A stretch of 64,000 nt of DNA from Promethearchaeia archaeon (GTDB lineage: Archaea; Asgardarchaeota; Lokiarchaeia; Sigyniarchaeales; SOKP01). The notes beneath the pieces are model-generated. The model was not told where the DNA came from. It made no database searches and was given only the letters and a program-made list of their open reading frames with translations. Position numbers and translations under genes: made by a program. Within the stretch, counting starts at the first letter, position 1. Every line of letters begins with the position of its first letter. Positions 11,436-42,261 of the stretch are shown here, piece after piece. Location: the NCBI GenBank assembly GCA_029856105.1, contig JAHQWH010000015.1:164543-228542 (forward strand), written 5' to 3'.

Positions 11436-11469
11436 TTTCATTGATTCTGAACTTTCAGAAAAAGTGAAA
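11436..11469. promoter_or_regulatory. tandem operator A: 2 x TTTCA-N7-TGAA(A/C)
   Basis: TTTCA TTGATTC TGAAC TTTCA GAAAAAG TGAAA. Confidence 0.7.
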
Positions 11470-11505
11470 GTCAAGATATAATAAATATTTTGAGTATAAA
11501 AATGT

Positions 11506-11539
11506 TTTCATTATTTGTGAAATTTCACATTTTGTAAAA
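11506..11539. promoter_or_regulatory. tandem operator B between divergent TATA-like boxes
   Basis: TTTCA TTATTTG TGAAA TTTCA CATTTTG TAAAA; TTTTTATA on + at 11543 and on - at 11495-11502. Confidence 0.7.
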
Positions 11540-11577
11540 AGCTTTTTATATTAGAAAAACTATATTATCATTAAGAA

Positions 11578-12687
11578 ATGCCTACAAATAATAAGAATAA
11601 TCACATTTACGACAAAAAGATCAGGAATTATGAAAAGGAAGTCATAAAATTCTTTGTAGAATACGGAAAAAATAAAAGATCTGATATTGAATCTCATATT
11701 CTTGCTTACATTTTATTGCGCGAAGGACAATGGTTAACTCAAGAAAACATTAGAGAATTATCACTCATTTTTTATGAAACTGAATTTAAAAAAGGCATTT
11801 CACAGGGTTCTATATCCCAAATTCTAAATAATTTCGTAGAATATAGCGTTCTAAATAAAAGAAAACTTGAGACTAAAAAGAACGCTTTTGAATATTCAAT
11901 GTCAGGAGCTTTTAATCAAGTAATGTCTTCTGCTATAGGATATGGAATAGAGGAGTTGGAGAAGTATATCTTGTTCTTGAAGAAAAAATTAGCCTCTTTG
12001 GAAAAAATTGAATATAAAAGTAATGAAGTTGAATTTCTAAGAGTTAGGCTAAATGAAAGAGTAAAGGAATTAATAGAATTCTTTATTTTTCATAAGGATC
12101 TCTATGAAGAAATATTCAAGATACCCAATAATAAAAAGAAAAATATTAGTAAACCAGAAGATCTAAGTGATTTTCAAATTAAGAAGTCTCTTAGAGAAAT
12201 TGAAAGAGATATTATTGAGTTTATAATAAATTGTCCATTATTCAGGTTTGGAAAGATGAAAGGCGCTCATTACCCTATTATTGCTTATTTCTTTACTAGG
12301 AAGAGATTAACTCAAGAAAAACTAAAAGAACTTACAGGTTTCTCTGCTGGAATGGTTTCTGAAGGTTTAAATTATATGCTTCAGGAAGGGTACATAAATT
12401 TAGATAAAGTTAAAGGTATTAGAGTACGGTATTACGAATTAAATTCAATTGCCTATTATAATTATCTACATCTATTCCGGATCGTCAAATCAAATTCTGA
12501 ATTATTTACAAGGTTAGATGCTATAAGCAGTGAAATAAAAACAAAAAGAACTGAGCTAAAAGATATAAATGGATATCGCATTATAAATAAGCGAGTTAAA
12601 CAATTTTTAAATGCAAAACCCGTGGTTGAGAAATTATTAATATCATTCAAAGATGCAATGGAAAGGTTTAAACATAAACCACAATAA
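11578..12687 (+). CDS. tandem (two-domain) GbsR/MarR-like winged-helix transcriptional regulator
   Basis: Two wHTH units: LTQENIRELS...ISQGSISQILN and LTQEKLKELTGFSAGMVSEGLN; halves resemble the gene pairs at 37821-39115 and 41085-42122. Confidence 0.8.
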   Translation: MPTNNKNNHIYDKKIRNYEKEVIKFFVEYGKNKRSDIESHILAYILLREGQWLTQENIRELSLIFYETEFKKGISQGSISQILNNFVEYSVLNKRKLETKKNAFEYSMSGAFNQVMSSAIGYGIEELEKYILFLKKKLASLEKIEYKSNEVEFLRVRLNERVKELIEFFIFHKDLYEEIFKIPNNKKKNISKPEDLSDFQIKKSLREIERDIIEFIINCPLFRFGKMKGAHYPIIAYFFTRKRLTQEKLKELTGFSAGMVSEGLNYMLQEGYINLDKVKGIRVRYYELNSIAYYNYLHLFRIVKSNSELFTRLDAISSEIKTKRTELKDINGYRIINKRVKQFLNAKPVVEKLLISFKDAMERFKHKPQ

Positions 12688-12810
12688 AAAAAGAAGGAAA
12701 TATAAAGAATTAGTATTATGAGGGCAATCAAAATAATCAGTGAAATTAAGGATTAAGCGGGTCTATATAGTAGAAAAAACAATTTTTAAAATTCTTTTGA
12801 TGATGGTGGG

Positions 12811-12826
12811 TTGTCATTCCCGTAAT
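12811..12826 (+). repeat. 16-bp direct repeat, copy 2 (TTGTCATTCCCGTAAT)
   Basis: Exact copy at 9860-9875. Confidence 0.6.
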
Positions 12827-12905
12827 ACTTTCAATAAATATTATTACAAATCCAAAATTAATTATTATAATAATGTGAAAAACACTATAAGAATGGTTTG
12901 TATTT

Positions 12906-14243
12906 ATGAAGAAAAAGAGAGTTGTTATAATCGGAGCCTTAGGTATGGATTTTCACCTGTTTAACACCGTCTTCAAAGATAATGAAGAATACGAGGTAAT
13001 TGCTTTTACTATTGCTGGAGAGCAGAATGTAGGCACAATTGAAGGGGCGGAAAGGAAATATCCGGCGGAATTAGCAGGTAAACTATATCCAAAAGGCATT
13101 CCAATGCTTCCCGAAGAACACATTGAAGAAATAATTAAACTTCATCAAATAGATGAGGTGGTGTTTGCATATTCTGATGTTTCGCACGAAGAATTAATGC
13201 ATAAAGCATCTAGAGCGCTATCTGCTGGAGCTAACTATCGTTTGATATCGGGAAAATTCACCCAAATTAAATCTAAAAAACCCGTTGTAGCAATATGTGC
13301 TGTTAGAACTGGATGTGGTAAAAGCCAAGTTTCTAGAGCAACTTATAGGTATTTAATGAGCAAAGGTTATAAAGTTGTAGCAGTAAGAGAACCAATGCCT
13401 TATGGAGATTTGATAAAACAAAATGTTATGCGTTTTGAGAAGTACGAAGATTTAGATAAGTTTGATTGCACGATCGAGGAGCGGGAAGAGTACGAACCTT
13501 ACATTGAACAGGGACTTGTGATTTATTCAGGAGTAGATTACGAAAAAATTGTTAGGGAAGCAGAAAAAGAAGCGGATGTAATCATCTTTGACGGTGGAAA
13601 CAACGAGCTATCGTTTTATGTTCCAGATTTACTTTTCATCGTAGTAGACCCATTAAGACCGGGACACGAGATGAAATATCATCCCGGCGAAGTAAACGCC
13701 CGATCTGCCGATGCGTTCGTCATTAATAAAATGAATAACGCTAAACCAGAAGATGTGAAAATCGTTGAGAATAATTTAAACGAATTAAATCCTGACGCAA
13801 CAAAAATATATACAAATTCGGTTGTTACTATCGAAGGTAATCCTGATTTAAAGGGCAAAAAAGTAATTGTTGTAGAAGATGGGCCAACTTTAACGCATGG
13901 TAGTATGTCGTACGGCGCGGGATTTGTTGCGGCAACCAATAGTGGAGCTATAATTATAGATCCAAAACCTTATGTAACAGGTACTATGAAAAAAGTATTT
14001 GAAGAATTTCCACAGATCACACAGATAGTTCCAGCCATGGGATATAACGACCAACAGATTAAAGACATGGAAGAAACTCTAAATAAAGCTGAATGCGAAA
14101 TTATAATTGATGGCAGCCCTATTGATCTTGAAAAATTAATTAATAGCAATAAACCTATCATCAGAGTCTCTTATGATATTGAACCTGTCAAAAGTCCAAC
14201 GATAGAAGAAGTCTTAGATAAATTTATTGAAAAATTTTTATAA
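12906..14243 (+). CDS. arcE: arginine synthetase (ArcE-type; cyclic 2,3-diphosphoglycerate synthetase-like P-loop family)
   Basis: DFHxFN, YPxELAGxLYPxGIP, FAYSDVSHE, AVRTGCGKSQ, PMPYGDL, CTIEEREEYEP, DGGNN, EDGPTLTHG, PAMGY match the Thermococcus ArcE family as recalled; OTC, carbamate kinase and OAT nearby. Confidence 0.75.
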   Translation: MKKKRVVIIGALGMDFHLFNTVFKDNEEYEVIAFTIAGEQNVGTIEGAERKYPAELAGKLYPKGIPMLPEEHIEEIIKLHQIDEVVFAYSDVSHEELMHKASRALSAGANYRLISGKFTQIKSKKPVVAICAVRTGCGKSQVSRATYRYLMSKGYKVVAVREPMPYGDLIKQNVMRFEKYEDLDKFDCTIEEREEYEPYIEQGLVIYSGVDYEKIVREAEKEADVIIFDGGNNELSFYVPDLLFIVVDPLRPGHEMKYHPGEVNARSADAFVINKMNNAKPEDVKIVENNLNELNPDATKIYTNSVVTIEGNPDLKGKKVIVVEDGPTLTHGSMSYGAGFVAATNSGAIIIDPKPYVTGTMKKVFEEFPQITQIVPAMGYNDQQIKDMEETLNKAECEIIIDGSPIDLEKLINSNKPIIRVSYDIEPVKSPTIEEVLDKFIEKFL

Positions 14244-14320
14244 AAATAATATTTTAAATTTTAATATGTAAGAAGGGAAGATTACTCAAGATATCAAAAA
14301 TCTCTTTTTTCATAAGTTAT

Positions 14321-14541
14321 TTATTTTTTCAGATGGTGGAAAATGTCTCCATGCCATATATATACTTTAAGTTTGGGAGATATATCTTCTAAATAATACC
14401 CAAATAATTTGCATAGGTTTTCCCTTCATGATATGCTCCTTTACTATCTTGTCGAAGTGCTTCAGCTACTTTCTTAAGAAATGTAGAAAGAATTTGAGGA
14501 TCAGTAAGTACTTTTCTATCAGCTTCAGGTAGTTTTTTCAT
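14321..14541 (-). pseudogene. alpha/beta-hydrolase internal fragment, frameshifted
   Basis: MKKLPEADRKVLTDPQIL...EALRQDSKGAYHEGKTYAN then, in another frame, LEDISPKLKVYIWHGD (IWHG motif); no N-terminal half. Confidence 0.55.
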
Positions 14542-14715
14542 ATAAATTTATTCATATTATTGTCTAATTTTTCTAAGTAGTGTATAAAACATCTCATCTA
14601 TTACTTAAATTATGATAGGTTTATATAATCGAAACTATTTAACTTCTTATTGATGATATTAGCTGCAAAGCTAAGGAAATCTTTACAAAAATGTTTAAAA
14701 AACAGGGATAAATTA

Positions 14716-16806
14716 ATGTGTAAAAATAAAAAAATCAAAGTAAGAGTTGCATTATTATTAATTCTGGCGATTTTTTTTTCAAGTCCTTTTATATTTTTAA
14801 AGACAAGCCAATCTGATGATGAAGCAAGAGCATTAGATGAGAGAAGTATCAGAAGTGCTAATAGCATATGGAGCTACACTGCGGGAGATGGTTTATTTTC
14901 GGTGGCAATCTCCTCCGATGGACATTACATTGTCGCAGGAGGCCATGATAACAAGGTGTATCTCTTCGATAAAGCCAGCCCCACCCCCCTATGGAACTAC
15001 ACGACGGGAGGTTGGGTACGTTCGGTGGCAATCTCCTCCGACGGGCAGTATATTGTCGCGGGAAGCGATGATGATCATGTGTATTTCTTCAATAAAACTA
15101 GCTCCACTCCACTATGGAACTTCACTACGATAGTTAATATATATTCAGTGGCAATTTCCTCCAATGGGCAGTACATTGCTGCGGGAATCTATCGCTCGGT
15201 CTATTTTTTCGATAAAGCCAGCTCCAATCCCCTATGGTATCACGACACGGGAGATGCGGCAGTAGTAACTTCGGTGGCGATCTCGTCCGACGGGCAGTAC
15301 ATTGCCGCAGGAAACTATGGTAACAAAACATATCTTTTTAATAAAGCCAGCTCTACTCCCCTATGGAGCTACACTGCGGGAGATCGGGTACAATCGGTGG
15401 CAATTTCCTCCGACGGACAGTACATTGCTGCGGGAAGCTATGATAACAAAGTATATCTCTTCGATAAAGCCAGCTCCACCCCACTATGGAGCTATACTAC
15501 GGGAGATAATGTATATTCGGTGGCAATTTCCTCCGACGGGCAGAACATTGCCGCGGGAAGCTATGATGACAAGATATATCTCTTCGATAAAGCCAGCTTC
15601 ACTCCCCTATGGAACTATACTACGGGAAATAGTGTATTTTCGGTGGCAATTTCCTCCGATGGGCAGAACATTGCCGCAGGAAGCGTGGACGACAAGGTAT
15701 ATCTCTTCGATAAAGCCAGCTCCACCCCCCTATGGAACTATACTACGGGAAGTCATGTACATTCGGTGACAATCTCCTCCGATGGGCAGTATATTGCCTC
15801 GGGAGGTTGGGGTAATACGATATATCTCTTCGATAACAAGCCCTATACATTTACATTGTCTACAGATGCCGATGTTCCTGATTTGGACGGTATATTTTCT
15901 TTAAATTGGACTGTTTCTTCTGGTGCAACTAATTACTCCGTGTATCGTCATTCCAGTTATATTAATGAAATTAACGATAGTTTAATCCTTCTAGCGTATG
16001 AAATCACCGATCTGAGTTTATATTTGAGCGAATATTCAGATGAAACCTATTATTTCATTGTTGTTGCAAATAACACTTACGGTGAGACCTTATCAAATTG
16101 CATTACGGTGGTGGTGGGCTTACTTCCGGGAAGCTTCACATTATCTTCAAATGCGAGCGATCCCGATGACAATGGCCTTTTTATTCTTTCTTGGACTGGT
16201 TCTTCTGGCGCAACTAATTACTCCATATATCAATACTCCAGTTTTATCACGGAAATTAACGGCAGTTTAACCCTTCTAGCGGACGAAATCACCGATCCAA
16301 GCCTAGATTTGAGTGGATATTCGGACGGAACCTATTATTACATTGTTGTTGCGCATAATCAAATTGGAGATACTTCATCAAACTGTATTACTGTAATTGT
16401 TCAAATTACCAAATCGTTCACGATCATTACTCCCAATATCTCCTCTTCGTGGGAATGTGGTACGTCTCAGTCTATATCTTGGTCTTCAACGGGGATTATT
16501 TTGAATATTAAACTTGAACTCTATAGAAATGATGTGTTCGTAATGGAGATTATTTCAAGTACTGCTAATAATGGCGAAGTTTACTGGGTAGTTTTCTCGG
16601 AACTCGCGAGTTCTGACCACTATCAGATCAAAATTATAGACGTATCTAATGCTTCCATTTTCGCCTATAGCGACTACTTTGAAATAGAAAACACTTTACC
16701 AACAGAACCACCTGGTATTCCGGGATATAATGTACTATTTCTTATTGCTACTTTAGGTTCAATTATGGCATTAATTATGAAAAAATGTTCTAATTCCATG
16801 AAATAA
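14716..16806 (+). CDS. secreted/surface WD40-like beta-propeller protein with two FN3-like domains, Ser/Thr-rich Ig-like domain and Loki-CTERM-type anchor
   Basis: N-terminal signal/TM; 8 x 42-aa SVAISSDGQYIAAGSYDNKVYLFDKASSTPLW repeats; duplicated FTLS...GATNYS.Y domain; C-terminal PGIPGYNVLFLIATLGSIMALIMKK; ORF-track start is 14650. Confidence 0.85.
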   Translation: MCKNKKIKVRVALLLILAIFFSSPFIFLKTSQSDDEARALDERSIRSANSIWSYTAGDGLFSVAISSDGHYIVAGGHDNKVYLFDKASPTPLWNYTTGGWVRSVAISSDGQYIVAGSDDDHVYFFNKTSSTPLWNFTTIVNIYSVAISSNGQYIAAGIYRSVYFFDKASSNPLWYHDTGDAAVVTSVAISSDGQYIAAGNYGNKTYLFNKASSTPLWSYTAGDRVQSVAISSDGQYIAAGSYDNKVYLFDKASSTPLWSYTTGDNVYSVAISSDGQNIAAGSYDDKIYLFDKASFTPLWNYTTGNSVFSVAISSDGQNIAAGSVDDKVYLFDKASSTPLWNYTTGSHVHSVTISSDGQYIASGGWGNTIYLFDNKPYTFTLSTDADVPDLDGIFSLNWTVSSGATNYSVYRHSSYINEINDSLILLAYEITDLSLYLSEYSDETYYFIVVANNTYGETLSNCITVVVGLLPGSFTLSSNASDPDDNGLFILSWTGSSGATNYSIYQYSSFITEINGSLTLLADEITDPSLDLSGYSDGTYYYIVVAHNQIGDTSSNCITVIVQITKSFTIITPNISSSWECGTSQSISWSSTGIILNIKLELYRNDVFVMEIISSTANNGEVYWVVFSELASSDHYQIKIIDVSNASIFAYSDYFEIENTLPTEPPGIPGYNVLFLIATLGSIMALIMKKCSNSMK
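14865..15838 (+). repeat. 8 x ~126-bp intragenic tandem repeat (WD40 blades)
   Basis: Recurrent TCGGTGGCAAT(C/T)TCCTCCGA(C/T)GG and CTCTTCGATAAAGCCAGC at about 126-bp period; GC visibly above the rest of the window. Confidence 0.9.
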
Positions 16807-17180
16807 AATTCTAAAAATTTTTTTTTTTATTTAATTTAAGGGGCTATTAAATATCATTATAAGTACTTCTTTGTTATGATTTTTTCATAATTTAATCTTT
16901 TTCACATAATTTATGGGTATGAAAAATATTTTATCCTTGGGAATCGTGTATAGTTTAATTCTTTGTAACTAATTGGTTGTTCTCCCAATAGTAATTCGTA
17001 ATTCTTGCTTTTCCATAAGCAAATAATATTAAATTTCTGAATAGAAATCTTGAAATAATTTTTCTAATTTGATCCAAGAGTCTCTATCGGATAACTTGAA
17101 TTTCTTTCCGTTTTGTTTGAATAAATTGAATTTTAAATTTAATATCTATTTCTGAGACCATAAGATTTATATAGAGAAAC

Positions 17181-17229
17181 TTACTTATAGTAAGTAATTT
17201 ACTGATGGTAAGATAATTACTATTAGTAA
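17181..17229. promoter_or_regulatory. triple palindromic operator TTACT-N3-(A/G)GTAA, 18-bp period, downstream of TATA box (17166-17173)
   Basis: TTACTTATAGTAA (17181), TTACTGATGGTAA (17199), TTACTATTAGTAA (17217), upstream of the TetR gene. Confidence 0.7.
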
Positions 17230-17284
17230 ACTTAATTAATGACTTGTAATAACATAAAATGAATAATTAAGCTGAAAGTGGTGA

Positions 17285-17956
17285 ATGAAAATTTCCAAAT
17301 TATCTAGAAGAGAACGTGAAAAATTACAGCGTCGTAACGATATACTCAAAGCTGCTGAAAAAAGATTCTTTAATAAAGGCTATGATGAGGTTTCTATGGA
17401 TGATATCGCGGGAGATTTAGAGCTTTCTAAAACAACGCTCTATTTGTATTTTAAAAATAAACCTTCATTGTATTTTGCCGTAGTAATAAAAGGTATGGTT
17501 ATCCTTAGGAATATATTGAAAAATGCTATAAAAAACGAGGAATCAGGATTAGGAAAAATAATGGGCATAATTCGAGCTTACTTTGATTACATACAAATTC
17601 ATCTAGATTATTATGGCCTTAATCTTTCATCTAGAGCCATTCGTTTTACGAAAATGCTTAAACCTAACGAGGAGGGTGATACAGAAATTGAAAATGCTGA
17701 AGAGTATATCGGATTAACAAAAGAATTACTTGAAATGTTAATTGACGCTGTCAGTTTGGGAATTAAGGATGGTACAATTAGAAAAAACCTGAATCCATTA
17801 CAGACAGTAATTTTCTTGGGTTCTACCATTGATTTTATAGTACAAATATCCCCCGAATATAAATTACTCTTAGAGATGTATAGCATAACTGCTGAGGAAT
17901 ATCTTCAACACTCGATTGATGTGTTATTACGAGGTCTAGCTGGGGAAAAAAAATAA
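17285..17956 (+). CDS. TetR/AcrR family transcriptional regulator
   Basis: ILKAAEKRFFNKGYDEVSMDDIAGDLELSKTTLYLYFKNK HTH. Confidence 0.93.
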   Translation: MKISKLSRREREKLQRRNDILKAAEKRFFNKGYDEVSMDDIAGDLELSKTTLYLYFKNKPSLYFAVVIKGMVILRNILKNAIKNEESGLGKIMGIIRAYFDYIQIHLDYYGLNLSSRAIRFTKMLKPNEEGDTEIENAEEYIGLTKELLEMLIDAVSLGIKDGTIRKNLNPLQTVIFLGSTIDFIVQISPEYKLLLEMYSITAEEYLQHSIDVLLRGLAGEKK

Positions 17957-17973
17957 TTGGAGGAAGATAAAAA

Positions 17974-18537
17974 ATGGAAAAAAATAAAATATTAATTGCG
18001 TATGGAACTCGTTACGGAGCGACAACTAGTACCGCAGAAGAAATTTCCAAAGTTCTTCAAGGTGAAGGATTTGATGTAAAAGTTGTAAATCTCCAAAAAG
18101 ATAAGGTAAAAGATATCACAAATTTTGAACTTGTTGTTATTGGAAGTGGAATGAAAATGGATATGTGGACGACTAAAGCTAAAGCATTTTTAAAGAAGTT
18201 TAGTGGTGAATTCAAGAAAAGGAAAGTGGCCATTTTCGTGTCATCAGGTGGACGGGCACTCATGGAACATAAAGGAGAACTTGATGAAATTGATAGAATA
18301 ACTAAAAAATACCTTGAAGATAAAGCTTCTAAATATGGTTTGAATCCAATATCAATGACTATGTTTGGAGGTGTTTGGGATTATAATCAGATTTCTAAAA
18401 TTTTTAGAAAATTCTTGGATGCAGAAAAAGAAAATTTTATCGCGGCAGGAATAAAAGAAACAGAGCCAGGAGTCTATGACACTAGAAATTGGGAGAATAT
18501 TCGTGCATGGGCTAAAGAGTTAGCTAGCAAGATTTAA
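17974..18537 (+). CDS. flavodoxin-domain protein (HemG/Flavodoxin_5-like)
   Basis: LIAYGTRYGAT FMN loop; DTRNWENIRAWA C-terminus; GGAGG RBS. Confidence 0.85.
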   Translation: MEKNKILIAYGTRYGATTSTAEEISKVLQGEGFDVKVVNLQKDKVKDITNFELVVIGSGMKMDMWTTKAKAFLKKFSGEFKKRKVAIFVSSGGRALMEHKGELDEIDRITKKYLEDKASKYGLNPISMTMFGGVWDYNQISKIFRKFLDAEKENFIAAGIKETEPGVYDTRNWENIRAWAKELASKI

Positions 18538-18705
18538 AAAATCCCAATTCAACATAATAAAACTTAAGAACTTTTAAATCTCTTTTTGTAAATTTCTTTT
18601 TTAATTTCTTTTAAATAATATTTAATTCTGAAGTCTCATTAAATCATCCATAATTCAAAATTATGTTTTAAATTTAAAAAATAGAACTTAATTGAGTAAA
18701 AATCT

Positions 18706-20886: not shown

Positions 20887-20913
20887 TAATAAATATTTTA
20901 AATATGATTCTAA

Positions 20914-22995: not shown

Positions 22996-22997
22996 TC

Positions 22998-24164: not shown

Positions 24165-24257
24165 ACATTATGATAAATAATCCTATAAATCAAGTTAAAC
24201 TAATAAATTTGATAAATAAATAAACAATAAAATTATAAAGTAAAAGTGGTATTAAAA

Positions 24258-28503: not shown

Positions 28504-28520
28504 GAAAAAGATTTATAAAT
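28504..28520 (+). promoter_or_regulatory. BRE/TATA-like promoter
   Basis: GAAAAAGATTTATAAAT upstream of 28587. Confidence 0.45.
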
Positions 28521-28586
28521 GAATTGAAGATAAATAGATAATATACTTAAAAAGATAAGAGTCGAAAATTTAAATAGTGAAAAAGC

Positions 28587-30303: not shown

Positions 30304-30307
30304 AAAA

Positions 30308-31711: not shown

Positions 31712-31854
31712 AGGTACAGCAAATCTTTTGGGAAAGCTGTGGGATAAACGAACCAAATATCAAGGTGTTTTTTAAGGAAAACTATACAAATGATTAAATT
31801 TTTATATATCGTAATCGAAAACCTTGATTCAAACAATTTAAAGCAATAATTATT

Positions 31855-33177: not shown

Positions 33178-33186
33178 ATTATATGG

Positions 33187-33441
33187 TTGGAAATTATGAC
33201 AATGAAGGCAATAACTTTATGTAAATTAGGGATGAGCGTAATAGAAAAGGTAATTGACGAATTAAAAGAAATCCCTCAAATCAAACGCGTAATGTCTTTA
33301 ACTGGCGATTACGACGTGTTGATTGAAATTGTAGTGGATTCGTCCGAAGAGTTGTACAGCATTTTTGCTAAAAAAATTGACTTAATAGAAGGAATAATTG
33401 AGTCAAATACGCATGTAATAATGCGATCTTGGGAGAAATAA
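33187..33441 (+). CDS. stand-alone Lrp/AsnC ligand-binding (RAM) domain protein
   Basis: VMSLTGDYDVLIEI...I..IEGI..SNTHV; no HTH. Confidence 0.85.
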   Translation: MEIMTMKAITLCKLGMSVIEKVIDELKEIPQIKRVMSLTGDYDVLIEIVVDSSEELYSIFAKKIDLIEGIIESNTHVIMRSWEK

Positions 33442-33463
33442 CAAAATTTTATAAAATAAGCTT

Positions 33464-34003
33464 TTATTTTTCCCTATTAGAGATTACGCTAAGAACAAGA
33501 GTTTTAAATGCTTTTTCAACATTACCCCCATGTTTAGCACTCGTCTCGATAAATTCGCTAGCTTTCATTTTTTTTGCTAATTTTTCACCGTCTTGGGTTG
33601 TAACTATCTTTGCCTCTGTTAAATCGCTTTTATTGCCAATCAAAAGATATGCAGCGTTCTTATTTCCAAACTCTTTTAAATCTTTTAGCCATTTGGATTT
33701 TAAATCCTTAAAGGTAGCTGGTCGAGTTACATCATACACAAATAAGGCTCCAGCGCAACCTTGAAAAAACGCTTTTCGCGATAAATCATATTTATCTTGG
33801 CCTGCTATATCCCAGAGTATCATTTTAACATGGACATTCTTTTCCTCAACATTCATCTCTTTTATAACAATATTAACTCCCAAAGAAGGTTGATAATCTT
33901 GTTCAAACTTCTGATGAATATATTGATTAATTAGTGATGTTTTTCCAACAGCAGAATTACCTAAAACGGCTAATTTAAAAATCATATCAGTTCTATCAGA
34001 CAT
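33464..34003 (-). CDS. Rab-like small GTPase
   Basis: G1 GNSAVGKT, G2 YQPSLG, G3 WDIAGQ, G4 NKSD, G5 ETSAK; no C-terminal Cys prenylation motif. Confidence 0.93.
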   Translation of the reverse strand: MSDRTDMIFKLAVLGNSAVGKTSLINQYIHQKFEQDYQPSLGVNIVIKEMNVEEKNVHVKMILWDIAGQDKYDLSRKAFFQGCAGALFVYDVTRPATFKDLKSKWLKDLKEFGNKNAAYLLIGNKSDLTEAKIVTTQDGEKLAKKMKASEFIETSAKHGGNVEKAFKTLVLSVISNREK

Positions 34004-34122
34004 AAAAAATCAAATTTTATATAATGGATAATATCAAAATAATAAAATCTACCTTTTTAAAATAACTCTAATATCAATAAATTATATATCACTATTACGA
34101 ACAAGTTAAAAATTAGCCTAAT

Positions 34123-35715
34123 CTAATAGCCTACCGCTTGTCCATCTTTTCGTGGATCGGAGGCTGCAAGATAGCCATCTTCGAGTTTATATATGATTTG
34201 ACCACCACCAAATTCGAAATAATGTCCATTATATACTTGATGACCCAGTTTTCTTAAGTGTTCTTGCGATTCTTTATTAAAGCCATGTTCAAGATTAACT
34301 TTCATTCCTTGCATTACTCGCCAACGTGGTGCATCGATCGCCGCTTGAGGGTTTTGTTCGTATTCAAATATTCTTACCATCATCTGAGCATGCCCCTGAG
34401 GTTGCATGGCCCCCCCCATAACACCGAAACTCATTACTGGTTCTCCTTTTTTCGTGACAAATGCGGGTATGATCGTGTGATACGGGCGCTTCTCCGGACC
34501 GACCTGATTTGGGTGTCCATCGATTAAAGTAAATCCGTTTCCCCTGTTTTGTAAGCTAATACCTGTTCCAGGTATCACAATTCCCGAACCGAACCCCATG
34601 TAATTCGATTGAATATACGATACCATCATACCTTCAGAATCAGCAGTAGCCAAATAAACGGTATCTCCCGTTTGGGGGCTACCAAACTTAAACTTCTGAG
34701 CTTTTTTTACGTCAATTAAGTTCGCTCGGCCTCTTAGATAATCAGAGCTAAGTATTAGGGAAGTGTCAAATTCCAAGAATTTTCTATCTGAGATATATCG
34801 ATATGCGTCAGAAAAAGCTAGTTTCATCGCTTCTATCTGCAAATGGATTGACTCTGGAGAATCGGGGTTGTATTGACTAAAATCAAAATTTTTTAACACA
34901 CCCAGTGCTATTAACGCAGCTAAGCCTTGGCCGTTTGGAGGTAATTCGTGTAGAGTTAAACCTTTATAACCCATAGTTATTGAACTCTCCCATTTTACCC
35001 CGTGATTCTCTAGATCTTCAAGCGTTATCAATCCACCAGTATTCATTGCATGGCTTACAATTTTTTTTGCTAATTTTCCACTATAAAAAGATTCTCCTTC
35101 CGTTTCTGCAATTTCTTTTAAGGTCTTTGCTTGATTCGGGTTTATAAATAATTCTCCTGGCTCGGGAGCCCTCCCCTCTGGGAGGAAGGTTTCGTGAAAT
35201 TCCGGGAATTTTCTTTTTTTATACATAGTTACCAATTGCTTCCATAGTTTTGCGGTTATCGGCGACACTAAAAACCCTTTCTCAGCGTATTTTATTGCGG
35301 GTTCAAATAATTCTTTAAACTTCAATTGCCCGTATTTTTTTGAAAGTTCAACCCAAGCTGAAACTGCTCCTGGAATCGTCGCAGAATCCCATCCTAAAAG
35401 TGGCATTGATTTATAATGAGAAAAATGTTCAAATGTCCATGATGCTGGAGATTTACCAGATGCGTTTAACCCATTTAATTTTTTTCCATCCCATATGATA
35501 GCAAAAGCGTCGCTTCCAATACCATTATTAACTGGTTCAACAACTGACAATGTTATAGCAGTTGCTATCGCAGAATCTACCGCATTCCCTCCTTTTTTGA
35601 GTATATTTAACCCCGCTTGAGAAGCAAGGGGTTGAGATGTAGATACTATATTTTTAGCTAATATTGGCATTCGCTGAGAAGAATAAGGAAAATCCCAATT
35701 AAATTCTTTTATCAT
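34123..35715 (-). CDS. ggt: gamma-glutamyltransferase family protein (YwrD-like)
   Basis: SQPLA, GGNAVD, GIGSDAF, PPNGQG, nucleophile DTVY, IQSNYMGFGSG, RPYHTIIP, GVMGG.MQPQGH, SDPRKDG. Confidence 0.88.
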   Translation of the reverse strand: MIKEFNWDFPYSSQRMPILAKNIVSTSQPLASQAGLNILKKGGNAVDSAIATAITLSVVEPVNNGIGSDAFAIIWDGKKLNGLNASGKSPASWTFEHFSHYKSMPLLGWDSATIPGAVSAWVELSKKYGQLKFKELFEPAIKYAEKGFLVSPITAKLWKQLVTMYKKRKFPEFHETFLPEGRAPEPGELFINPNQAKTLKEIAETEGESFYSGKLAKKIVSHAMNTGGLITLEDLENHGVKWESSITMGYKGLTLHELPPNGQGLAALIALGVLKNFDFSQYNPDSPESIHLQIEAMKLAFSDAYRYISDRKFLEFDTSLILSSDYLRGRANLIDVKKAQKFKFGSPQTGDTVYLATADSEGMMVSYIQSNYMGFGSGIVIPGTGISLQNRGNGFTLIDGHPNQVGPEKRPYHTIIPAFVTKKGEPVMSFGVMGGAMQPQGHAQMMVRIFEYEQNPQAAIDAPRWRVMQGMKVNLEHGFNKESQEHLRKLGHQVYNGHYFEFGGGQIIYKLEDGYLAASDPRKDGQAVGY

Positions 35716-35928
35716 TATAAATCACACCATACTTTTTTTTATAAAATTTTATAAATTTTTTCAAACGCTATTATAATACTAATTGTATAATTTTAGGGGT
35801 TATAATATTAATAACAATACTTTTTTCAAAAATAGTGAAAAGAAAAATGAAAGCGATCGAATTATTTTGCTAAACTTTACGAGATTGACATTGATAGCAC
35901 GAGCGCTTATTTGAAAAATAAAAGAATA

Positions 35929-36747
35929 TTAATTTGGAATGTCTTTTTTGTTGAAAACTATGAGGCTTCCGATTACGAGCGCGGCATTTATCGACGCTAA
36001 CACAATTATGTCCCGAATAAATAAATCTATATCCGCGTGTACAAGATAATCGAGGGGATTGTAATAAAAGAACACCGTAAAATACTTCAAGTTTTCGATC
36101 TCTTCCATGTAAGAATAAAACCCATCGATAAAAAACATTAAAAAGATCGCGACTATGCCTATTACCATTGCTTTCTTGGAATTAAGGAAAATTGTCGAGC
36201 CGAAAAAGGCAATCATAGATAAAGCGCTTAAAAACAGGACAACCATAACATAAGTCCCCCACACGCGGTCCCAATAAAGACCCTCAGCTATAAACATCTG
36301 AGAAGTTGCGATCCCTCCAGAGAGGATAAGAAACGCCAAAGTCATCATAATTGTTATAAGCATATATAGCGAAACAATTTTGCTACCCAAAAACTTGGTT
36401 CGAGTTATTGGTTTTGACAAGGACAACTCGATGGTTTTTTCTTCGATATCTTGCGATAGAAGCGAACTTGCAGAAAAAACCAAATATATTCCAGCGTACA
36501 ACCAAAGAAAGCCTAATACCTCCACGGTAAGGAAACCATAAGGATTAGTCATGGCAACCATTCCTCCAAAAAAATCTAACATGCCTTCTGGGAGCAGAGC
36601 TATAATAGAGGCCATGGCTTCCAAATCGAATTCGTTTAATATATATGTTGTAAAAACCCCTAACAATCCTGTAATTCCCCCAAGAAGAATGGTCGCCCAT
36701 TTTTTATCTTTTAAATATTCTTTCACTATTGTTAGCAATTGACCCAT
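35929..36747 (-). CDS. ABC-2 type exporter permease
   Basis: DIEEKTIELSLSKPITR, 6 TM, FNKKDIPN. Confidence 0.88.
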   Translation of the reverse strand: MGQLLTIVKEYLKDKKWATILLGGITGLLGVFTTYILNEFDLEAMASIIALLPEGMLDFFGGMVAMTNPYGFLTVEVLGFLWLYAGIYLVFSASSLLSQDIEEKTIELSLSKPITRTKFLGSKIVSLYMLITIMMTLAFLILSGGIATSQMFIAEGLYWDRVWGTYVMVVLFLSALSMIAFFGSTIFLNSKKAMVIGIVAIFLMFFIDGFYSYMEEIENLKYFTVFFYYNPLDYLVHADIDLFIRDIIVLASINAALVIGSLIVFNKKDIPN

Positions 36748-37719
36748 TTAATCCATCAACCCCTTAGCTTTAATATTGTCCTTTTCTAAAGAACCAACGC
36801 TGCTCGAACTTGTATCATAATATTTCATAAAAATATCCTCGAGATCGGGACTTTGAATCTCTAAATCACTTACCTTTCCGACCTGTCCTAGAATGTCTAT
36901 GATTTCGGTTAGATTTTCGCGAGAAACTGTAAGAGAAACGCTCGTCTCACTTGTTCTTAAGTTATCAACAATCCCGGTTGGGATTTTAGAGTTAAATTTT
37001 TGAAGCTCCAAAGCGGTGGGAAATTCGATCGTAATTTCTTTTAAGGCGATTTTTTTCAAACTTTGAACGGAATCTAATTCCACAATCGTTCCTTCTCGAA
37101 TAATTCCAACGCGATGGGCAACTTTTTCGACTTCCCCTAGTAAATGAGAGCTTAAAAGAACCGTCGAGCCAAAATTTTTTTGCTGTTCGTAAAGAATTTT
37201 GTAATATTCGGCCGTAATAAAAGGATCCAAACCCGAGGTTGGCTCATCAACTATTAATAGCTCAGTTTCTGGCGCAAAAGTAAGGACAATTCCGATCTTT
37301 TGCTTGTTCCCTTTGCTAAGTTCTTTCACTTTCCTGTCTAAAACTAAGTCAATACGCTCTGCCAACTCCTCAATCTTTCTATTGGGTACAGGTTTGTTAT
37401 ACATCTTTAAAAGGAATTGAAGATTTTTTCGCACCGTTTTGTCTTTATAGAATCCCAAGTCACCAGGTAAATATGCTGTTCTCCGTCGAATTTCAGTGCT
37501 ATGTTGCTTCACATCCAATCCAAATACTTGAGCTTCTCCGGAAGTTCGTCGAATGAAATTAAGTAAGACCCTAATTGTGGTGGTTTTCCCAGCTCCATTT
37601 GGTCCGAGCAGCCCAAAGATCTCACCTTTTTTTACCTCAAATGTTAAATTCTCAATTCCACGAGATTTCCCATAATATTTTGTGAGAGCTTTTGTTTTTA
37701 TTACGAAGTTTTCATCCAT
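36748..37719 (-). CDS. ABC transporter ATP-binding protein
   Basis: GPNGAGKTT, LSKGNKQK, DEPTSGLDP, SSH. Confidence 0.95.
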   Translation of the reverse strand: MDENFVIKTKALTKYYGKSRGIENLTFEVKKGEIFGLLGPNGAGKTTTIRVLLNFIRRTSGEAQVFGLDVKQHSTEIRRRTAYLPGDLGFYKDKTVRKNLQFLLKMYNKPVPNRKIEELAERIDLVLDRKVKELSKGNKQKIGIVLTFAPETELLIVDEPTSGLDPFITAEYYKILYEQQKNFGSTVLLSSHLLGEVEKVAHRVGIIREGTIVELDSVQSLKKIALKEITIEFPTALELQKFNSKIPTGIVDNLRTSETSVSLTVSRENLTEIIDILGQVGKVSDLEIQSPDLEDIFMKYYDTSSSSVGSLEKDNIKAKGLMD

Positions 37720-37820
37720 ATCTCTAAAATATATTTATAAAATAAAAAGATTTATCGATTGAAATTTTCTATTACTTTTATCTACACTGCAGCATAAAAT
37801 TTCTGTAGCTATTCATAACT

Positions 37821-38336
37821 TTATTCGCCTTGATGATTGATCAATTCTTTTTCGATCGTTTTTATCAATTCGAGAGAAAAAGGGATGGAATTAGCCAGAA
37901 CATTGACTAACTGATAAATTTTGTCAAAACCATGCAAATTTTCTAACAAAACCTTTTCTTTTTCAATACCATCTTTGATAGCATTAATGCTTTCAGCAAA
38001 TCTTGAGATGCCTTTTGTAAGGTCCCTGAATGAATGAACAAAAGCTATATTGGGATTTTTCATGGAATAAGTAATTTCTCCCGTGGTAGACACACTAGTC
38101 TTTTCGATAAGGTCCATAGAAATTAATTTTGTTAATTCTTGTGATATCGTTCCTCGCGAAAATCCCGTTAGTTCTTGTAATTTTTCTTGAGTCAAGGATT
38201 TTCTGGTAATAAAATAAATTCTTATTGTCGTGAAAGTAGTTTTTTGCCCAATAAAAAGAGAGTAGGACAATAGGAATTTAAAAATATCCTTTTCAATCGC
38301 TCTTATTTCATCGTCGAATTCTTCAATTGTAATCAA
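37821..38336 (-). CDS. GbsR/MarR-like wHTH regulator (second of pair)
   Basis: IYFITRKSLTQEKLQELTGFSRGTISQEL. Confidence 0.8.
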   Translation of the reverse strand: MITIEEFDDEIRAIEKDIFKFLLSYSLFIGQKTTFTTIRIYFITRKSLTQEKLQELTGFSRGTISQELTKLISMDLIEKTSVSTTGEITYSMKNPNIAFVHSFRDLTKGISRFAESINAIKDGIEKEKVLLENLHGFDKIYQLVNVLANSIPFSLELIKTIEKELINHQGE

Positions 38337-39115
38337 GTATTATCCTCCTTCAACTCTTTTATAAAACTTGCTTCTTTAATTTTTTCTAGCAATTTCACAT
38401 TGTATTCGAAAAAGTTAATCATTTCGGTTACTCTTTTTGAGAGAATATCATAACCCCTCTTATCTTTATATTTATCTAATTCTTGAACCTTACTTTGTAA
38501 AAACTTTATTGCGAGTTCATTAGATTCAGATTTATAGGATCCAATATTAGAAGCAATATCAGCCATATTAACACCTAAAGCGTAGATATATTCGCGTGCT
38601 CCTTCTAAAGGTTCTTTTTTTATTGCAGGAACACTCGATAATACTTTTAAAGTCTGAGAGATAGCCCCCTTTGAAAATCCTGTTAATTCTTTAAGTTGTG
38701 TCTGAGTTAGGTTTTCATGAAGTAGTAAATAGCCTATTATTGAACCAAAAACAGCATTTTGACCCTTAACTTTACCGGCATCTACCAGAATTTCTATTAA
38801 TCTCTTTTCATAAACTCTAACTTTCCCTTCATATATGTGTGATTTACTTTTTAAATGTTGAGTATAACAAAGATCAAATGTTTCTTCCATTGCTTTCCAT
38901 AAGGTGTTAGCTTCGTCATCGTCAACATCGAGTTCTTTAATATTTCTTTTTAATTGATGTAACGAATCATTGTCCCATAGTGGATTAGTGAGGAAATCTT
39001 TAATTTTTTCTTTTAGGTAATTAATATTTCTACCCTTATTTTGTCTCAAATATTCTTGAGTTATGGTCTCCGTTAATTCTAAAATATATCTAAATTTTTC
39101 TGAATTAGTTTGCAT
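38333..39115 (-). CDS. GbsR/MarR-like wHTH regulator with about 90-aa N-terminal extension (first of pair)
   Basis: YEGKVRVYEK...GYLLLHENLTQTQLKELTGFSKGAISQTL; 4-bp overlap with the next gene. Confidence 0.78.
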   Translation of the reverse strand: MQTNSEKFRYILELTETITQEYLRQNKGRNINYLKEKIKDFLTNPLWDNDSLHQLKRNIKELDVDDDEANTLWKAMEETFDLCYTQHLKSKSHIYEGKVRVYEKRLIEILVDAGKVKGQNAVFGSIIGYLLLHENLTQTQLKELTGFSKGAISQTLKVLSSVPAIKKEPLEGAREYIYALGVNMADIASNIGSYKSESNELAIKFLQSKVQELDKYKDKRGYDILSKRVTEMINFFEYNVKLLEKIKEASFIKELKEDNT

Positions 39116-39191
39116 TGATAGGGGGTATGAAATCTAGCCACTTTAATTTATATTCCTTACATATAACATGGGATTACTTGTTTTTAAGTGT

Positions 39192-39239
39192 TTTCAAATT
39201 ACATGAATTTTGAGGATTTCATTTTCACTAAAAATGAAA
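39192..39239. promoter_or_regulatory. operator C: two TTTCA-N7-TGAA(T/A) units
   Basis: TTTCA AATTACA TGAAT (39192) and TTTCA CTAAAAA TGAAA (39223); TTATATA at 39245. Confidence 0.6.
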
Positions 39240-39309
39240 ATGCTTATATATGCAAAAAAATATTAGTATTATAATAAGGAAAGATTTTTCAAAAAATGTG
39301 AAAAATAAA

Positions 39310-40266
39310 ATGAACGCGATCGAAATTAAAGATTTAAAAAAATATTATAACAAAGGAAAAATCAAAGCAGTTGACGGAATTTCGCTTAAAGTTCCAAAAG
39401 GAGCAAGATTTGGATTTTTGGGACCAAATGGTGCAGGAAAAACAACAACTATTAGATGCATTTTGGGTTTTCTTAATCCCGATAGTGGAATAACTATGAT
39501 CAATGGCGAAGAAATTAACCCAAAAAAAGATGTTAAAATTCGGAACCAAATTGGATACTTACCAGGAGAACTTGGTCTTTATAGATATATGACTGCAGAT
39601 CAATTGATTAAATATTTTGCTAAACTATTTGACATCGAAATCGACTGGAAATTTATTAGAGATGTCACGGAGAGACTTGAAATTGAAATGGATAGGAAAA
39701 TGGGCGTGCTCAGTAAAGGAAACAAACAGAAAGTAGGCGTTTTAACCGCCTTAATGGGTAAATTTGATATATTAATTATGGATGAACCCACTTCTGGTCT
39801 TGATCCTTTAATGCAATCGGAATTTTATAGGATAATTGCTGAGCGCCAAGAAGAATCTAATTGCACTGTGTTTGTATCAAGTCATGTGCTTCCTGAAATT
39901 GAAAAATTTTGCGATAATGTTGCAATTATTAAAAATGGCAAAATTGTAGAAGTTTCCAGTGTTCAAGAGCTTAAAAAAAAAAGTCTAAAACGAATTGAAC
40001 TAGATTTCGAAAACAATAAAAGTTTAGCGGAATTTAATTCATTTCTTTTGTCAGATTTCCCTGAAGCTATTGTAAAACAAAATTACCAAGAAAGAATTGA
40101 ATTTTTACTCCCTTACAACCAGTCTCGCGATATATTACACTATATAAGTAAAAATAAATGGGCGGGAATGTCTATTAAAGACTTTAACATTACTCACTCA
40201 ACTTTGGATAATATATTTCTCGAATATTATAAGGATTCTAATTCTAAAGGAGGTGGAGTTGTTTGA
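39310..40266 (+). CDS. ABC transporter ATP-binding protein (paralog of 36748-37719)
   Basis: GPNGAGKTT, LSKGNKQK, DEPTSGLDP, SSH; ORF-track start is 39250. Confidence 0.94.
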   Translation: MNAIEIKDLKKYYNKGKIKAVDGISLKVPKGARFGFLGPNGAGKTTTIRCILGFLNPDSGITMINGEEINPKKDVKIRNQIGYLPGELGLYRYMTADQLIKYFAKLFDIEIDWKFIRDVTERLEIEMDRKMGVLSKGNKQKVGVLTALMGKFDILIMDEPTSGLDPLMQSEFYRIIAERQEESNCTVFVSSHVLPEIEKFCDNVAIIKNGKIVEVSSVQELKKKSLKRIELDFENNKSLAEFNSFLLSDFPEAIVKQNYQERIEFLLPYNQSRDILHYISKNKWAGMSIKDFNITHSTLDNIFLEYYKDSNSKGGGVV

Positions 40267-41078
40267 AGTTAATTCAAACTACTATAAAGGAAATAAGGTA
40301 CAATATTAAAGCTATTATAATACTGGCACTATGTTTTGGATTATTCTTTTTAGCATTTATGGCTATGTATGATCCTACTCTCTTTGAAGATATGGAAGCA
40401 TTACTTGAGAGTTATCCTGAAGCAATTGTACAAATGGTGGGTGACTATGTTGCATTATCTACATTTGGAGGGTTTATAAATGTTTACCTTTTCTCAATGA
40501 CTTGGTTTTATTTTGGTTTTTATTTCATCATAAAAACAGCGCAAGATATACCAAAAGAAATCGAAGATAAAACGATTGATATTATTTTATCAAAACCTAT
40601 AAAGCGTTGGAAATTTGTAATAGGTAAATATATACGACATATCATAACCGCTTTTATTGTTGTTGCCTTTTCAAGTTTTGGAGTTCTTATTGGTGTTTTC
40701 GCCTTTCCAACCATAATTCCTAGCGAAGTATACTTTAACGAGATATATACGGCTTTCTTTTGGCTTTTTGTATTTTTAGTTGCTTTGATTAGTACATCGT
40801 TATTCTTTTCGACATTTCTCCAATCCAAGCGAGCACTTACTTTAAGCTTTGCTTTTGTAACATTTTTTTACATTGTAGGAATATTTTGGGAAGCATTTCC
40901 AGAAGCAATACAGGGTATGAGATTTGTTAGTATCTTTTACTATTTTGAAACATCTAATCTACTCGTAAATCATGTGTGGGATAATGTCTTCCTAAACATT
41001 TTAATTCTAACGGGATATTCAGCTTGTATGGTAGGTTTATCAGTGCTTATTTTTAATAAGCGAGATATTCCCGTTTAA
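40263..41078 (+). CDS. ABC-2 type exporter permease (paralog of 35929-36747)
   Basis: EIEDKTIDIILSKPIKR, FNKRDIPV. Confidence 0.88.
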   Translation: MKLIQTTIKEIRYNIKAIIILALCFGLFFLAFMAMYDPTLFEDMEALLESYPEAIVQMVGDYVALSTFGGFINVYLFSMTWFYFGFYFIIKTAQDIPKEIEDKTIDIILSKPIKRWKFVIGKYIRHIITAFIVVAFSSFGVLIGVFAFPTIIPSEVYFNEIYTAFFWLFVFLVALISTSLFFSTFLQSKRALTLSFAFVTFFYIVGIFWEAFPEAIQGMRFVSIFYYFETSNLLVNHVWDNVFLNILILTGYSACMVGLSVLIFNKRDIPV

Positions 41079-41084
41079 TTTTTT

Positions 41085-41603
41085 TTATTTTATTTCCAGA
41101 CTATCAGCAAATTTTTCATATAGTTTAATCGCTGGTATATAGAAATTTATAACATTCATAATATTATTGTAGCCGTTCATTGTTTCTAGTTTACTACGCT
41201 TATTTTCCATTTCATTTTTCATTTTTTCGAGTTCACCTTCCCATTTTAACATAACAGTGATAATATTCTTAACTCTAGTGTTAGAAATTTGTTCAACCGA
41301 TTCAAATGTATATACTTTTTTACGAATACTAGGGATTTTTTTTCTAATGATCATTCCGGAGTCTACAAGGTTATTTAATTCTTGCGAGATTTTCCCAGAG
41401 GAATAACCAGTGAGATTTTTGAGGAGATTTTGGGAAATTTCTTTTCTTAATATTATGTAGATCAATATTCTTGAAGTAATTTCATTTCTAGTAGAATATA
41501 ATGGAGATTTAATTAAGTAATCAACGATTTCTTTCTCAATTTTCCTAACATTTAGATCATAAGGATCTTCGTCATCCAATTCGTCATACACTCCCTTTTT
41601 CAA
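41085..41603 (-). CDS. GbsR/MarR-like wHTH regulator (second of pair)
   Basis: IYIILRKEISQNLLKNLTGYSSGKISQELN. Confidence 0.8.
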   Translation of the reverse strand: MKKGVYDELDDEDPYDLNVRKIEKEIVDYLIKSPLYSTRNEITSRILIYIILRKEISQNLLKNLTGYSSGKISQELNNLVDSGMIIRKKIPSIRKKVYTFESVEQISNTRVKNIITVMLKWEGELEKMKNEMENKRSKLETMNGYNNIMNVINFYIPAIKLYEKFADSLEIK

Positions 41604-41606
41604 TCA

Positions 41607-42122
41607 CTATTCTCCGCTAAATGTTTCACTCATAGAAGAAGCAATATTCAAAACCTTGTTAAACCCATCCAATAACACATTAATTTGAGTGTGAAGATTA
41701 AGATATCCTTCCTTATTCCTAAATTCATCCAGTTCGTTTAATTTATCTTCCAAAAATTTAGAGACTATAGTAAAATGTTCAGATGAAACCTCACTAGTTC
41801 TTTCAATTAGTTGTGGGAGGTTTCCAGTTAGTAAATATTGATATTTATTGCTCATTGCTATTCTCTCTTTTTGTACAACGCCAAGCTTAATTAAATTACT
41901 TAGTGTTGTAGAAATTGTACCTGTAGAATAGCCAGTCAACTCTTTCAAATTAGATTGAGTAAGTTTATTGTGAATCATTAAATATCCAAGAATCTCTTGA
42001 ATTTTTGAAGGGGTATCCTTGTTTTTACCAATATCTATAAAGAATTTGATAAGCGTTTTTTCGTACTCTTTGATTTTTCCTCTAAATCTAAAATCGTGAT
42101 CTTGTGATAGATTTGAATTCAT
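41607..42122 (-). CDS. GbsR/MarR-like wHTH regulator (first of pair)
   Basis: FRGKIKEYEK...GYLMIHNKLTQSNLKELTGYSTGTISTTL. Confidence 0.8.
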   Translation of the reverse strand: MNSNLSQDHDFRFRGKIKEYEKTLIKFFIDIGKNKDTPSKIQEILGYLMIHNKLTQSNLKELTGYSTGTISTTLSNLIKLGVVQKERIAMSNKYQYLLTGNLPQLIERTSEVSSEHFTIVSKFLEDKLNELDEFRNKEGYLNLHTQINVLLDGFNKVLNIASSMSETFSGE

Positions 42123-42154
42123 TAGTTCTATATAGTTTTTAAGATTTTTAAACT

Positions 42155-42188
42155 TTTCATATTGAGTGAAATTTCATAAAATATGAGA
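42155..42188. promoter_or_regulatory. tandem operator D
   Basis: TTTCA TATTGAG TGAAA TTTCA TAAAATA TGAGA; TTTAAATA at 42193. Confidence 0.7.
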
Positions 42189-42227
42189 AACCTTTAAATA
42201 TGTAGTTTATTATTTATATTATAGATA

Positions 42228-42261
42228 CTTCAAAACTCATGAAAGTTCATGAGAATTGAGG
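42228..42261. promoter_or_regulatory. tandem operator E
   Basis: CTTCA AAACTCA TGAAA GTTCA TGAGAAT TGAGG. Confidence 0.62.

Follow-up and report, generated by a model that had tools for sequence, protein, structure and literature searches.

Paired and fused winged-helix regulators and their probable operator, a conserved palindrome, in Asgard archaea

Introduction

Why would a transcriptional regulator be kept as two different winged helix-turn-helix (wHTH) domains, encoded side by side or fused in one chain, next to a single symmetric palindrome? The question is raised by a 64,000-nucleotide stretch of DNA from a Promethearchaeia archaeon (GenBank assembly GCA_029856105.1, contig JAHQWH010000015.1, positions 164,543 to 228,542; the whole of this stretch is called the window below, and coordinates are counted from its first letter). 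Three loci of the window carry such a regulator, and the palindrome TTTCA-N7-TGAAA recurs in the intergenic region between the regulator and the divergent gene. An original prediction, made from the letters alone, took these regulators for a heteromeric family that reads double operators, possibly with DNA looping. Asgard archaea are the closest known prokaryotic relatives of eukaryotes, and we know of almost no pair of a transcription factor and its operator defined for them; nor did our search of the literature on Asgard transcription factors and operators find a defined pair. Here, we ask how the two wHTH types are related, whether their pairing and the palindrome are conserved, and what the layout of the sites suggests about their function.

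Results

The regulators form one family with two domain types

A domain profile search showed that the five open reading frames (ORFs) concerned encode six domains of one family, of which they are the sole members in the source genome. In an alignment of the six, two types were distinguished by sequence signatures and two indels. Type 1 comprises the N-terminal half of the product of 11578-12687, the C-terminal part of that of 38333-39115 and the product of 41607-42122; type 2 comprises the C-terminal half of the 11578-12687 fusion and the products of 37821-38336 and 41085-41603. At locus 1 both family domains lie in one ORF on the plus strand (11578..12687), with the type 1 half at about residues 1-185 and the type 2 half at about residues 190-369, joined by a linker predicted to be disordered. 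Loci 2 and 3 are split and lie on the minus strand. At locus 2 the type 1 subunit (38333..39115), which scored 191 bits higher with the type 1 than with the type 2 hidden Markov model (HMM), is followed by the type 2 subunit (37821..38336), whose start overlaps the type 1 stop by 4 nucleotides. At locus 3 the type 2 subunit (41085..41603) begins 3 nucleotides past the stop of type 1 (41607..42122).

MarR_2 was the top Pfam match for all five proteins, above the cut-off of 27 bits for the product of 41607-42122 (28.5 bits) and below it for the others (20-24 bits). In NCBIfam nothing scored above threshold for the regulators; the best match, to the GbsR-type equivalog CudC, reached 21.8 bits against a cut-off of 218, and CudC, Lrs14, Sta1 and MsvR were rejected as names because their matches were far below threshold. 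A profile made from the six halves, however, matched MJ223 (PDB 1KU9) over profile positions 21-155 with E = 5e-6 (hmmsearch). The fused protein was modelled with AlphaFold2 from an alignment of 25 natural fused homologues (predicted local distance difference test score, pLDDT, 87; predicted template modelling score, pTM, 0.84). The model consists of two copies of one module, joined by a disordered linker; in each copy a wHTH leads into two helices of about 30 residues each. Residues 12-183 of the model cover the whole 1KU9 chain (VIA, Z 9.4, 149 of 151 residues, root-mean-square deviation (rmsd) 3.8 Å) and also align to 4NB5 (Z 9.8) and 5JBR (Z 9.5), and Foldseek gave a template modelling (TM) score of 0.64 against 1KU9, normalised to the target. 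The wHTH matches many MarR-, Fur- and ArsR-type chains at Z 7-8.4. By the sequence and predicted fold of their wHTH the regulators belong to the MarR superfamily, and the label "GbsR/MarR-like", under which they had first been described, is correct at the level of the modelled fold and of subfamily resemblance.

One clade of type 1 proteins, found in several genera and 259-270 residues in length, carries an additional helical N-terminal extension of about 90 residues, encoded here by 38846-39115 on the minus strand. No Pfam match was found for this extension. Loci with it (L006, L024, L025, L043, L048, L051-L053 and L062-L064) mostly have the gene for an ATP-binding cassette (ABC) ATPase as divergent neighbour. 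The whole family comprises 451 clusters at 50% identity among 1.84 billion representative proteins, many of them with two matched stretches, and just one homologue has a named source, Promethearchaeota, where it is listed as a hypothetical protein.

Type 1 and type 2 are kept together and in one order

With the domain profile, 21 of 41 close relatives and 181 of 400 genomes of the phylum were found to encode the family; in the relatives the matches either adjoin one another or occur twice in one frame of 340-400 residues. We compared about 70 loci from several genera and families, and typed their domains with HMMs, one made from the window's three type 1 halves and the other from its three type 2 halves. 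The order originally noticed at three loci, type 1 and then type 2, recurred in all 43 split pairs and in 27 of 30 fusions. The three exceptional fusions are the most divergent ones and score low and ambiguously; in two of them both halves score as type 2, and in the third both score as type 1. The order type 2 to type 1 was seen in none of the 43 split pairs and 30 fusions, and no lone type 1 or type 2 gene was present among the examined loci except as truncated fragments. Two such isolated frames, of 80-93 residues, at L017 (G008:C26) and L018 (G022:C11), match just the C-terminal part of type 2 and are probably remnants of lost regulator pairs.

In a tree of 150 domains (FastTree) type 1 and type 2 formed two clades with local support of 99 and 96; the tree has long branches, and this basic split alone is taken from it. 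Fusions from another class of the phylum had their N-terminal halves in the type 1 clade and their C-terminal halves in the type 2 clade, and the duplication that separated the two types is therefore old. Fused and split forms alternate within both clades. Moreover, the type 2 start codon lies within 4 nucleotides of the type 1 stop in 30 of the 43 split pairs, with a 4-nucleotide overlap in 17, a proximity that suggests coupled, equimolar synthesis of the two subunits.

The palindrome is concentrated at the regulator loci

The exact palindrome occurs six times in the window (at 11453, 11506, 35824, 39223, 39287 and 42155), against 0.5 expected from dinucleotide-preserving shuffles. Partner units with one mismatch each abut at 11436, 11523 and 42172, and the pairs 11436/11453, 11506/11523 and 42155/42172 form 34-bp doubled sites with one mismatch in 20 specified bases. 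These are the distal (11436..11469) and proximal (11506..11539) operators of locus 1 and the proximal operator of locus 3 (42155..42188). All three had been predicted as abutting pairs. A fourth predicted pair, the distal operator of locus 3 (42228..42261), is degenerate: unit 42228 has one mismatch and its partner at 42245 has three, and since 24 sites in the genome are equally good (4 mismatches of 20) it is not significant on its own. Yet orthologues of locus 3 keep a doubled site at this distal position, with 2-3 mismatches. At locus 2 both units listed at first are present (39192..39208 with one mismatch and 39223..39239 exact), but the exact unit at 39287..39303 had been overlooked, as had the one at 35824, which has no regulator adjoining.

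Doubled 34-bp sites with up to 3 mismatches number 3 in the window against 0.05 expected in window shuffles. When the whole assembly (3.66 Mb, 32% G+C) was scanned, just three doubled sites with up to 2 mismatches of 20 were found, all beside these regulators, in agreement with the expectation that the tandem motif would be enriched there; the next-best sites, with 3 mismatches, are unrelated. Units with one mismatch number 23 in the window against 12 expected; of these, 12 fall within the four relevant intergenic stretches, the remainder occurring at the chance rate.

The predicted operator is conserved, its doubled form is not

At least one palindrome unit with up to one mismatch was present within 300 bp upstream of type 1 in 64 of 71 regulator units. 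The upstream regions contain on average about 2 units, against about 0.06 expected at the window's chance rate, with conserved positions at about -55 to -66 and -115 to -130. We also scanned 50 non-redundant upstream regions for all palindromic dyads of 5-mers with gaps of 0-14, without specifying a motif. TTTCA-N7-TGAAA ranked first: 33 of the regions hold 47 exact copies of it, where 0.12 would be expected, and the next-ranked dyads read this site at a shift. Apart from the site, distant paralogues have unrelated flanking DNA. The proposed association of palindrome and regulator thus extends far beyond the window, and we conclude that regulator and operator form a real, conserved system.

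The operators of the window are themselves kept in orthologues: the proximal doubled site of locus 1 in L031 and L035-L037, where the distal one is likewise conserved, and the proximal doubled site of locus 3 in L002-L005, L032 and L034. At locus 2 unit 39223 lies at position -124 in all orthologues and unit 39192 at the conserved position -93. Abutting doubled sites with up to 3 mismatches were nevertheless found at just 19 of 70 loci, nearly all of them in two orthologue groups, the fused regulators divergent from a condensation-domain gene (the locus 1 type, in three genera) and the orthologues of locus 3. Other loci have single units, units interleaved at a 7-bp offset (TTTCA-nn-TTTCATGAAA-nn-TGAAA) or offsets of 5-6 bp; the interleaved form stands in place of the abutting one at many ABC-type loci (L041, L055, L057, L058, L066, L049 and L040). 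Abutting doubled operators are clade-specific, and the idea that double operators are a feature of the family has to be given up.

The sites lie at two predicted back-to-back promoters

The proximal site is found about 55-66 nucleotides upstream of the type 1 start codon. At 48% of non-redundant loci this site is preceded, at a distance of 0-6 bp (mostly 3-5 bp), by the end of a TATA-like hexamer, against 7% at control positions, in line with the observation, first made in the window, that one site abuts a TATA box. At locus 1 the proximal operator begins 4 nucleotides after the TATA-like TATAAAAA (11494-11501), which faces the regulator gene; at locus 2 operator 39223..39239 is 4 nucleotides downstream of the TATA-like TATATAAG (about 39244-39251, minus strand), with the additional unit 39192..39208 lying 31 bp downstream on the regulator side; and at locus 3 the proximal operator is 4 nucleotides downstream of TTTAAATA (42193-42200, read on the minus strand).

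Distal and proximal sites are spaced 53-73 bp apart. The common geometry recognised at loci 1 and 3, with spacings of 70 and 73 bp, was confirmed, the distal site facing the condensation-domain gene at locus 1 and the gene start at 42302 at locus 3; unit 39287 extends it to locus 2, where the two operators are 64 bp apart. That the second site is at the start of the divergent gene was borne out at the ABC-type loci, where it ends 5-30 nucleotides before the MNAIE(V/I) start of the ATPase at 18 of the 21 loci scored. At locus 2 it ends 6 nucleotides before the ATG at 39310, against 5 nucleotides before the conserved MNAIEI start in orthologues. The true start of this ATPase gene is likely to be 39310 and not the listed 39250, because the conserved N-terminus MNAIEI begins there and the operator is just upstream. 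The DNA between paired operators contains TATA-like boxes that face both directions. As read from the sequence, the layout corresponds to a pair of back-to-back promoters in which an operator separates each TATA box from its predicted start site, and this accounts for the spacing of 53-73 bp.

Divergent targets and neighbouring genes

Among the 71 units, the divergent neighbour is an ABC ATPase gene (followed by one for an ABC-2 permease) in 33, a condensation-domain gene in 9 and an AAT-like gene in 3. The nine condensation-domain genes are divergent from fused regulators and come from three genera. All three classes occur in the window. At locus 1 the predicted target (10024..11394, minus strand) encodes a condensation-domain acyltransferase resembling PapA5 and wax ester synthases (Pfam Condensation, 1.3e-17; AATase; PapA_C). 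At locus 2 it is the ABC ATPase gene (39310-40266, plus strand; Pfam ABC_tran, 1.3e-25), followed by an ABC-2 permease gene (40263-41078, plus strand; Pfam ABC2_membrane_2, 2.3e-19). At locus 3 a peptidase-C45/AAT-like acyltransferase gene (42523-43743, plus strand; Pfam AAT, 2.6e-8) is preceded by a small conserved ORF (42302-42547, plus strand) whose product has a C-terminal hydrophobic stretch and whose start is conserved in orthologues. Placed between the distal operator and the AAT-like gene, this ORF extends in another frame over the listed start of that gene.

The locus 2 regulators are followed immediately, on their own strand, by a second pair of ABC ATPase and ABC-2 permease genes (35929-37719, minus strand). 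This pair has a TATA-like stretch of its own and no operator, and is absent from the orthologous loci of related genomes. The orphan exact operator (35824..35840) lies 3' of this second permease gene, within a copy of about 60 bp (35800-35868, aligning to 39260-39330) of the ABC TATA-like box, the operator and the first seven codons (MKAIELF, then a stop), in which the reading frame stops after 8 codons. The copy resembles a relic left by a rearrangement or a duplication. The second ABC ATPase gene (36748-37719) was considered as a part of this relic and rejected, since its product has an unrelated N-terminus (MDENF...) and it lacks an operator.

Outside the window the source genome contains 23 exact units, 18 of them within long ORFs; they fit the chance rate, and no wider regulon was found among them. 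Four of the outside units are intergenic (C12:40690, C85:26320, C161:61625 and C211:83792). Three complete genomes of relatives have 18-55 exact units against 6-10 for a reversed control, from which no conclusion is drawn because the control differs in word content. The highest count is that of G038, a complete genome of the same order (55 against 6 for its reversed control), which has at least five regulator units and in which the regulon may be larger. At L055 and L056 (two genomes of genus code g22, from the same taxonomic family as the source genome), three units, one split and two fused, share a stretch of about 10 kb with ABC transporters and the condensation-domain gene, a clustering that suggests one larger functional module.

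Discussion

A probable regulatory unit of two subunits

We consider it probable that type 1 and type 2 form a heterodimer, or in the fused proteins a single-chain pseudodimer, and that it acts as a repressor both of its own expression and of the divergent gene. The two types would be anciently diverged paralogues of an MJ223/GbsR-like regulator of the MarR superfamily that act as one unit, adjacent and probably translationally coupled genes giving a 1:1 heterodimer and a fused chain a pseudodimer. Their two wHTH heads may each read one arm of the 17-bp palindrome. The first operator would lie immediately downstream of TATA in the regulator's own promoter, and the second, 53-73 bp off, where transcription and translation of the divergent gene begin. 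Known archaeal repressors that occupy the DNA between TATA and the start site prevent recruitment of RNA polymerase; the Asgard regulator, bound at the same place, could act in this manner on its own gene and on the divergent one until released by a putative ligand. Where operators are doubled (abutting, 17-bp offset) or interleaved (7-bp offset), as in some clades, two regulator units would probably sit side by side.

Several points weigh against this model. The motif is absent from 7 of the 71 units, mostly distant fusions of other families. No half-site asymmetry that would indicate a heterodimer was detected in the arms or flanks of the palindrome; being symmetric, the operator does not speak positively for a heterodimer, and homodimers fit it as well. 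The packing of the two halves in the AlphaFold2 model is partly forced, because a single chain was modelled. A canonical TATA box beside the distal operator, on the divergent strand, was not enriched (9% against 7%), a measure confounded by the palindromic TTTAAA box of the proximal promoter, and TATA boxes are easily found in DNA of 32% G+C. Finally, proteins of the MarR type are also capable of activation.

The site is symmetric, but the protein may be functionally asymmetric. In that case an Asgard-specific branch of the MarR superfamily would have become an obligate two-subunit or single-chain regulator whose bodies have split roles, one sensing a ligand, for example, and the other holding the complex together or contacting the transcription machinery; it would bind doubled or interleaved operators cooperatively, and one signal would switch both promoters. 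We regard this as a possibility, if a rather doubtful one.

It seems unlikely that type 1 and type 2 instead form separate homodimers on different units or operators, one acting, for example, as repressor and the other as antagonist or second sensor, in which case the pairing would reflect co-regulation and not a heterodimer. Such an arrangement would suit the symmetry of the palindrome and the many promoters with two units, abutting or interleaved, as well as the two operators per region, and the known proteins of this kind (GbsR, OpuAR and MJ223) are treated as homodimers encoded by single genes (PMC6207618). It does not readily explain, however, why fused type 1-type 2 chains are common in this one order and, in the tree, are interspersed with split forms, whereas fusions in the opposite order were not seen (the three exceptions being low-scoring and ambiguous) and neither type stands alone other than as truncated fragments. 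Many loci, moreover, have one unit per promoter, and the fused model, with a pTM of 0.84, packs both halves together.

Looping, with a tetramer of two pairs or two fused chains bridging the operators so that the intervening 36-47 bp of promoter DNA form the loop, would add to the heterodimer model and not replace it. Operator spacings are held within a narrow range, with peaks at 53-56, 60-66 and 70-73 bp, and 63-64 and 73 bp are near whole helical turns; but 70 bp, the commonest spacing in the clade with doubled operators, is off phase, and a loop of about 60-70 bp would be very tight. Overall phasing was weak (R = 0.24, p about 0.05, in related and hence non-independent sequences), so looping is neither needed nor indicated, and the back-to-back promoters simply account for the spacing. 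We judge looping, part of the original prediction, to be distinctly improbable.

That the palindrome is bound by another factor or is a structural promoter element, the regulators recognising something else, is very improbable: exact units do occur elsewhere, in the source genome and, in excess over the reversed control, in other genomes, but those outside the window lie largely in long ORFs at the chance rate, and the motif tracks the regulators across paralogues and genera with unrelated flanks, whatever the divergent gene.

A predicted regulator-operator pair for Asgard archaea

The predicted regulator-operator pair, conserved across the order, consists of a 17-bp palindrome, its position relative to TATA, a two-subunit regulator and defined targets, and all its components are open to in vitro testing with recombinant protein. 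That a single regulator exists naturally in a clean range of both split and fused versions should be useful for studying how homodimeric wHTH proteins evolve into heterodimers and single-chain pseudodimers. For annotation, the analysis corrects one gene start (39310) and offers a name and a predicted regulon for about 450 clusters of "hypothetical" proteins.

Comparison with known systems

The proposed mode of action resembles that of the efflux repressors MarR, MexR and EmrR, with which the Asgard regulators share a promoter-overlapping palindrome, a divergent predicted target, presumed autoregulation and, often, an exporter as target, and that of the archaeal repressors MDR1, Phr and TrmB, with which they share the placement of the operator downstream of TATA. 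The members of both groups are homodimers, whereas the operator sequence and the paired or fused architecture are specific to the Asgard family.

The nearest precedent in design for the fused form appears, by analogy, to be SarS of the staphylococcal SarA family. In SarS, as in SarU and SarY, two homologous MarR-like wHTH halves on one chain imitate a dimer, and SarS was reportedly described in these terms by Li and colleagues in 2003. Its likeness to the fused Asgard regulator, as a single chain with two wHTH halves, is one of design. PDB entry 1P4X (SarS) is a weak fold match to our model (Foldseek E = 5.8e-3, rmsd 17.8 Å; VIA Z 7.2, rmsd 11.6 Å). SarA proteins use N-terminal helices for dimerisation and lack the long C-terminal helical hairpin of the Asgard modules, and we know of no split, two-gene form of SarS in fixed order. 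The fused Asgard regulators look like a different lineage and an independent fusion. The supposed novelty of the system thus stands in part: a single chain with two wHTH domains has a precedent in SarS, and no published description of the paired or fused arrangement was found, in searches on heterodimeric and tandem MarR proteins that were swamped by unrelated literature.

The closest known systems are MJ223 of Methanocaldococcus jannaschii (1KU9), which serves the GbsR family as structural template, and the GbsR family itself (GbsR, OpcR, OpuAR and CudC), with which the Asgard modules share an N-terminal wHTH followed by long C-terminal helices. In GbsR-type proteins an aromatic cage near the linker is the inducer site for choline or glycine betaine, and MJ223 has no such cage (PMC6207618). 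Local repression of transporter genes, as by GbsR, is also the likely role of the Asgard regulators; the targets of GbsR, however, are osmoprotectant importers, whereas those predicted here are ABC-2 exporters and acyltransferases. MJ223 and GbsR are described as single-gene homodimers, whereas the Asgard family, as its gene architecture alone indicates, consists of two diverged paralogues encoded in fixed order or fused. We conclude that, within the MarR superfamily, the paired or fused type 1 and type 2 regulator represents a new form of the MJ223/GbsR branch.

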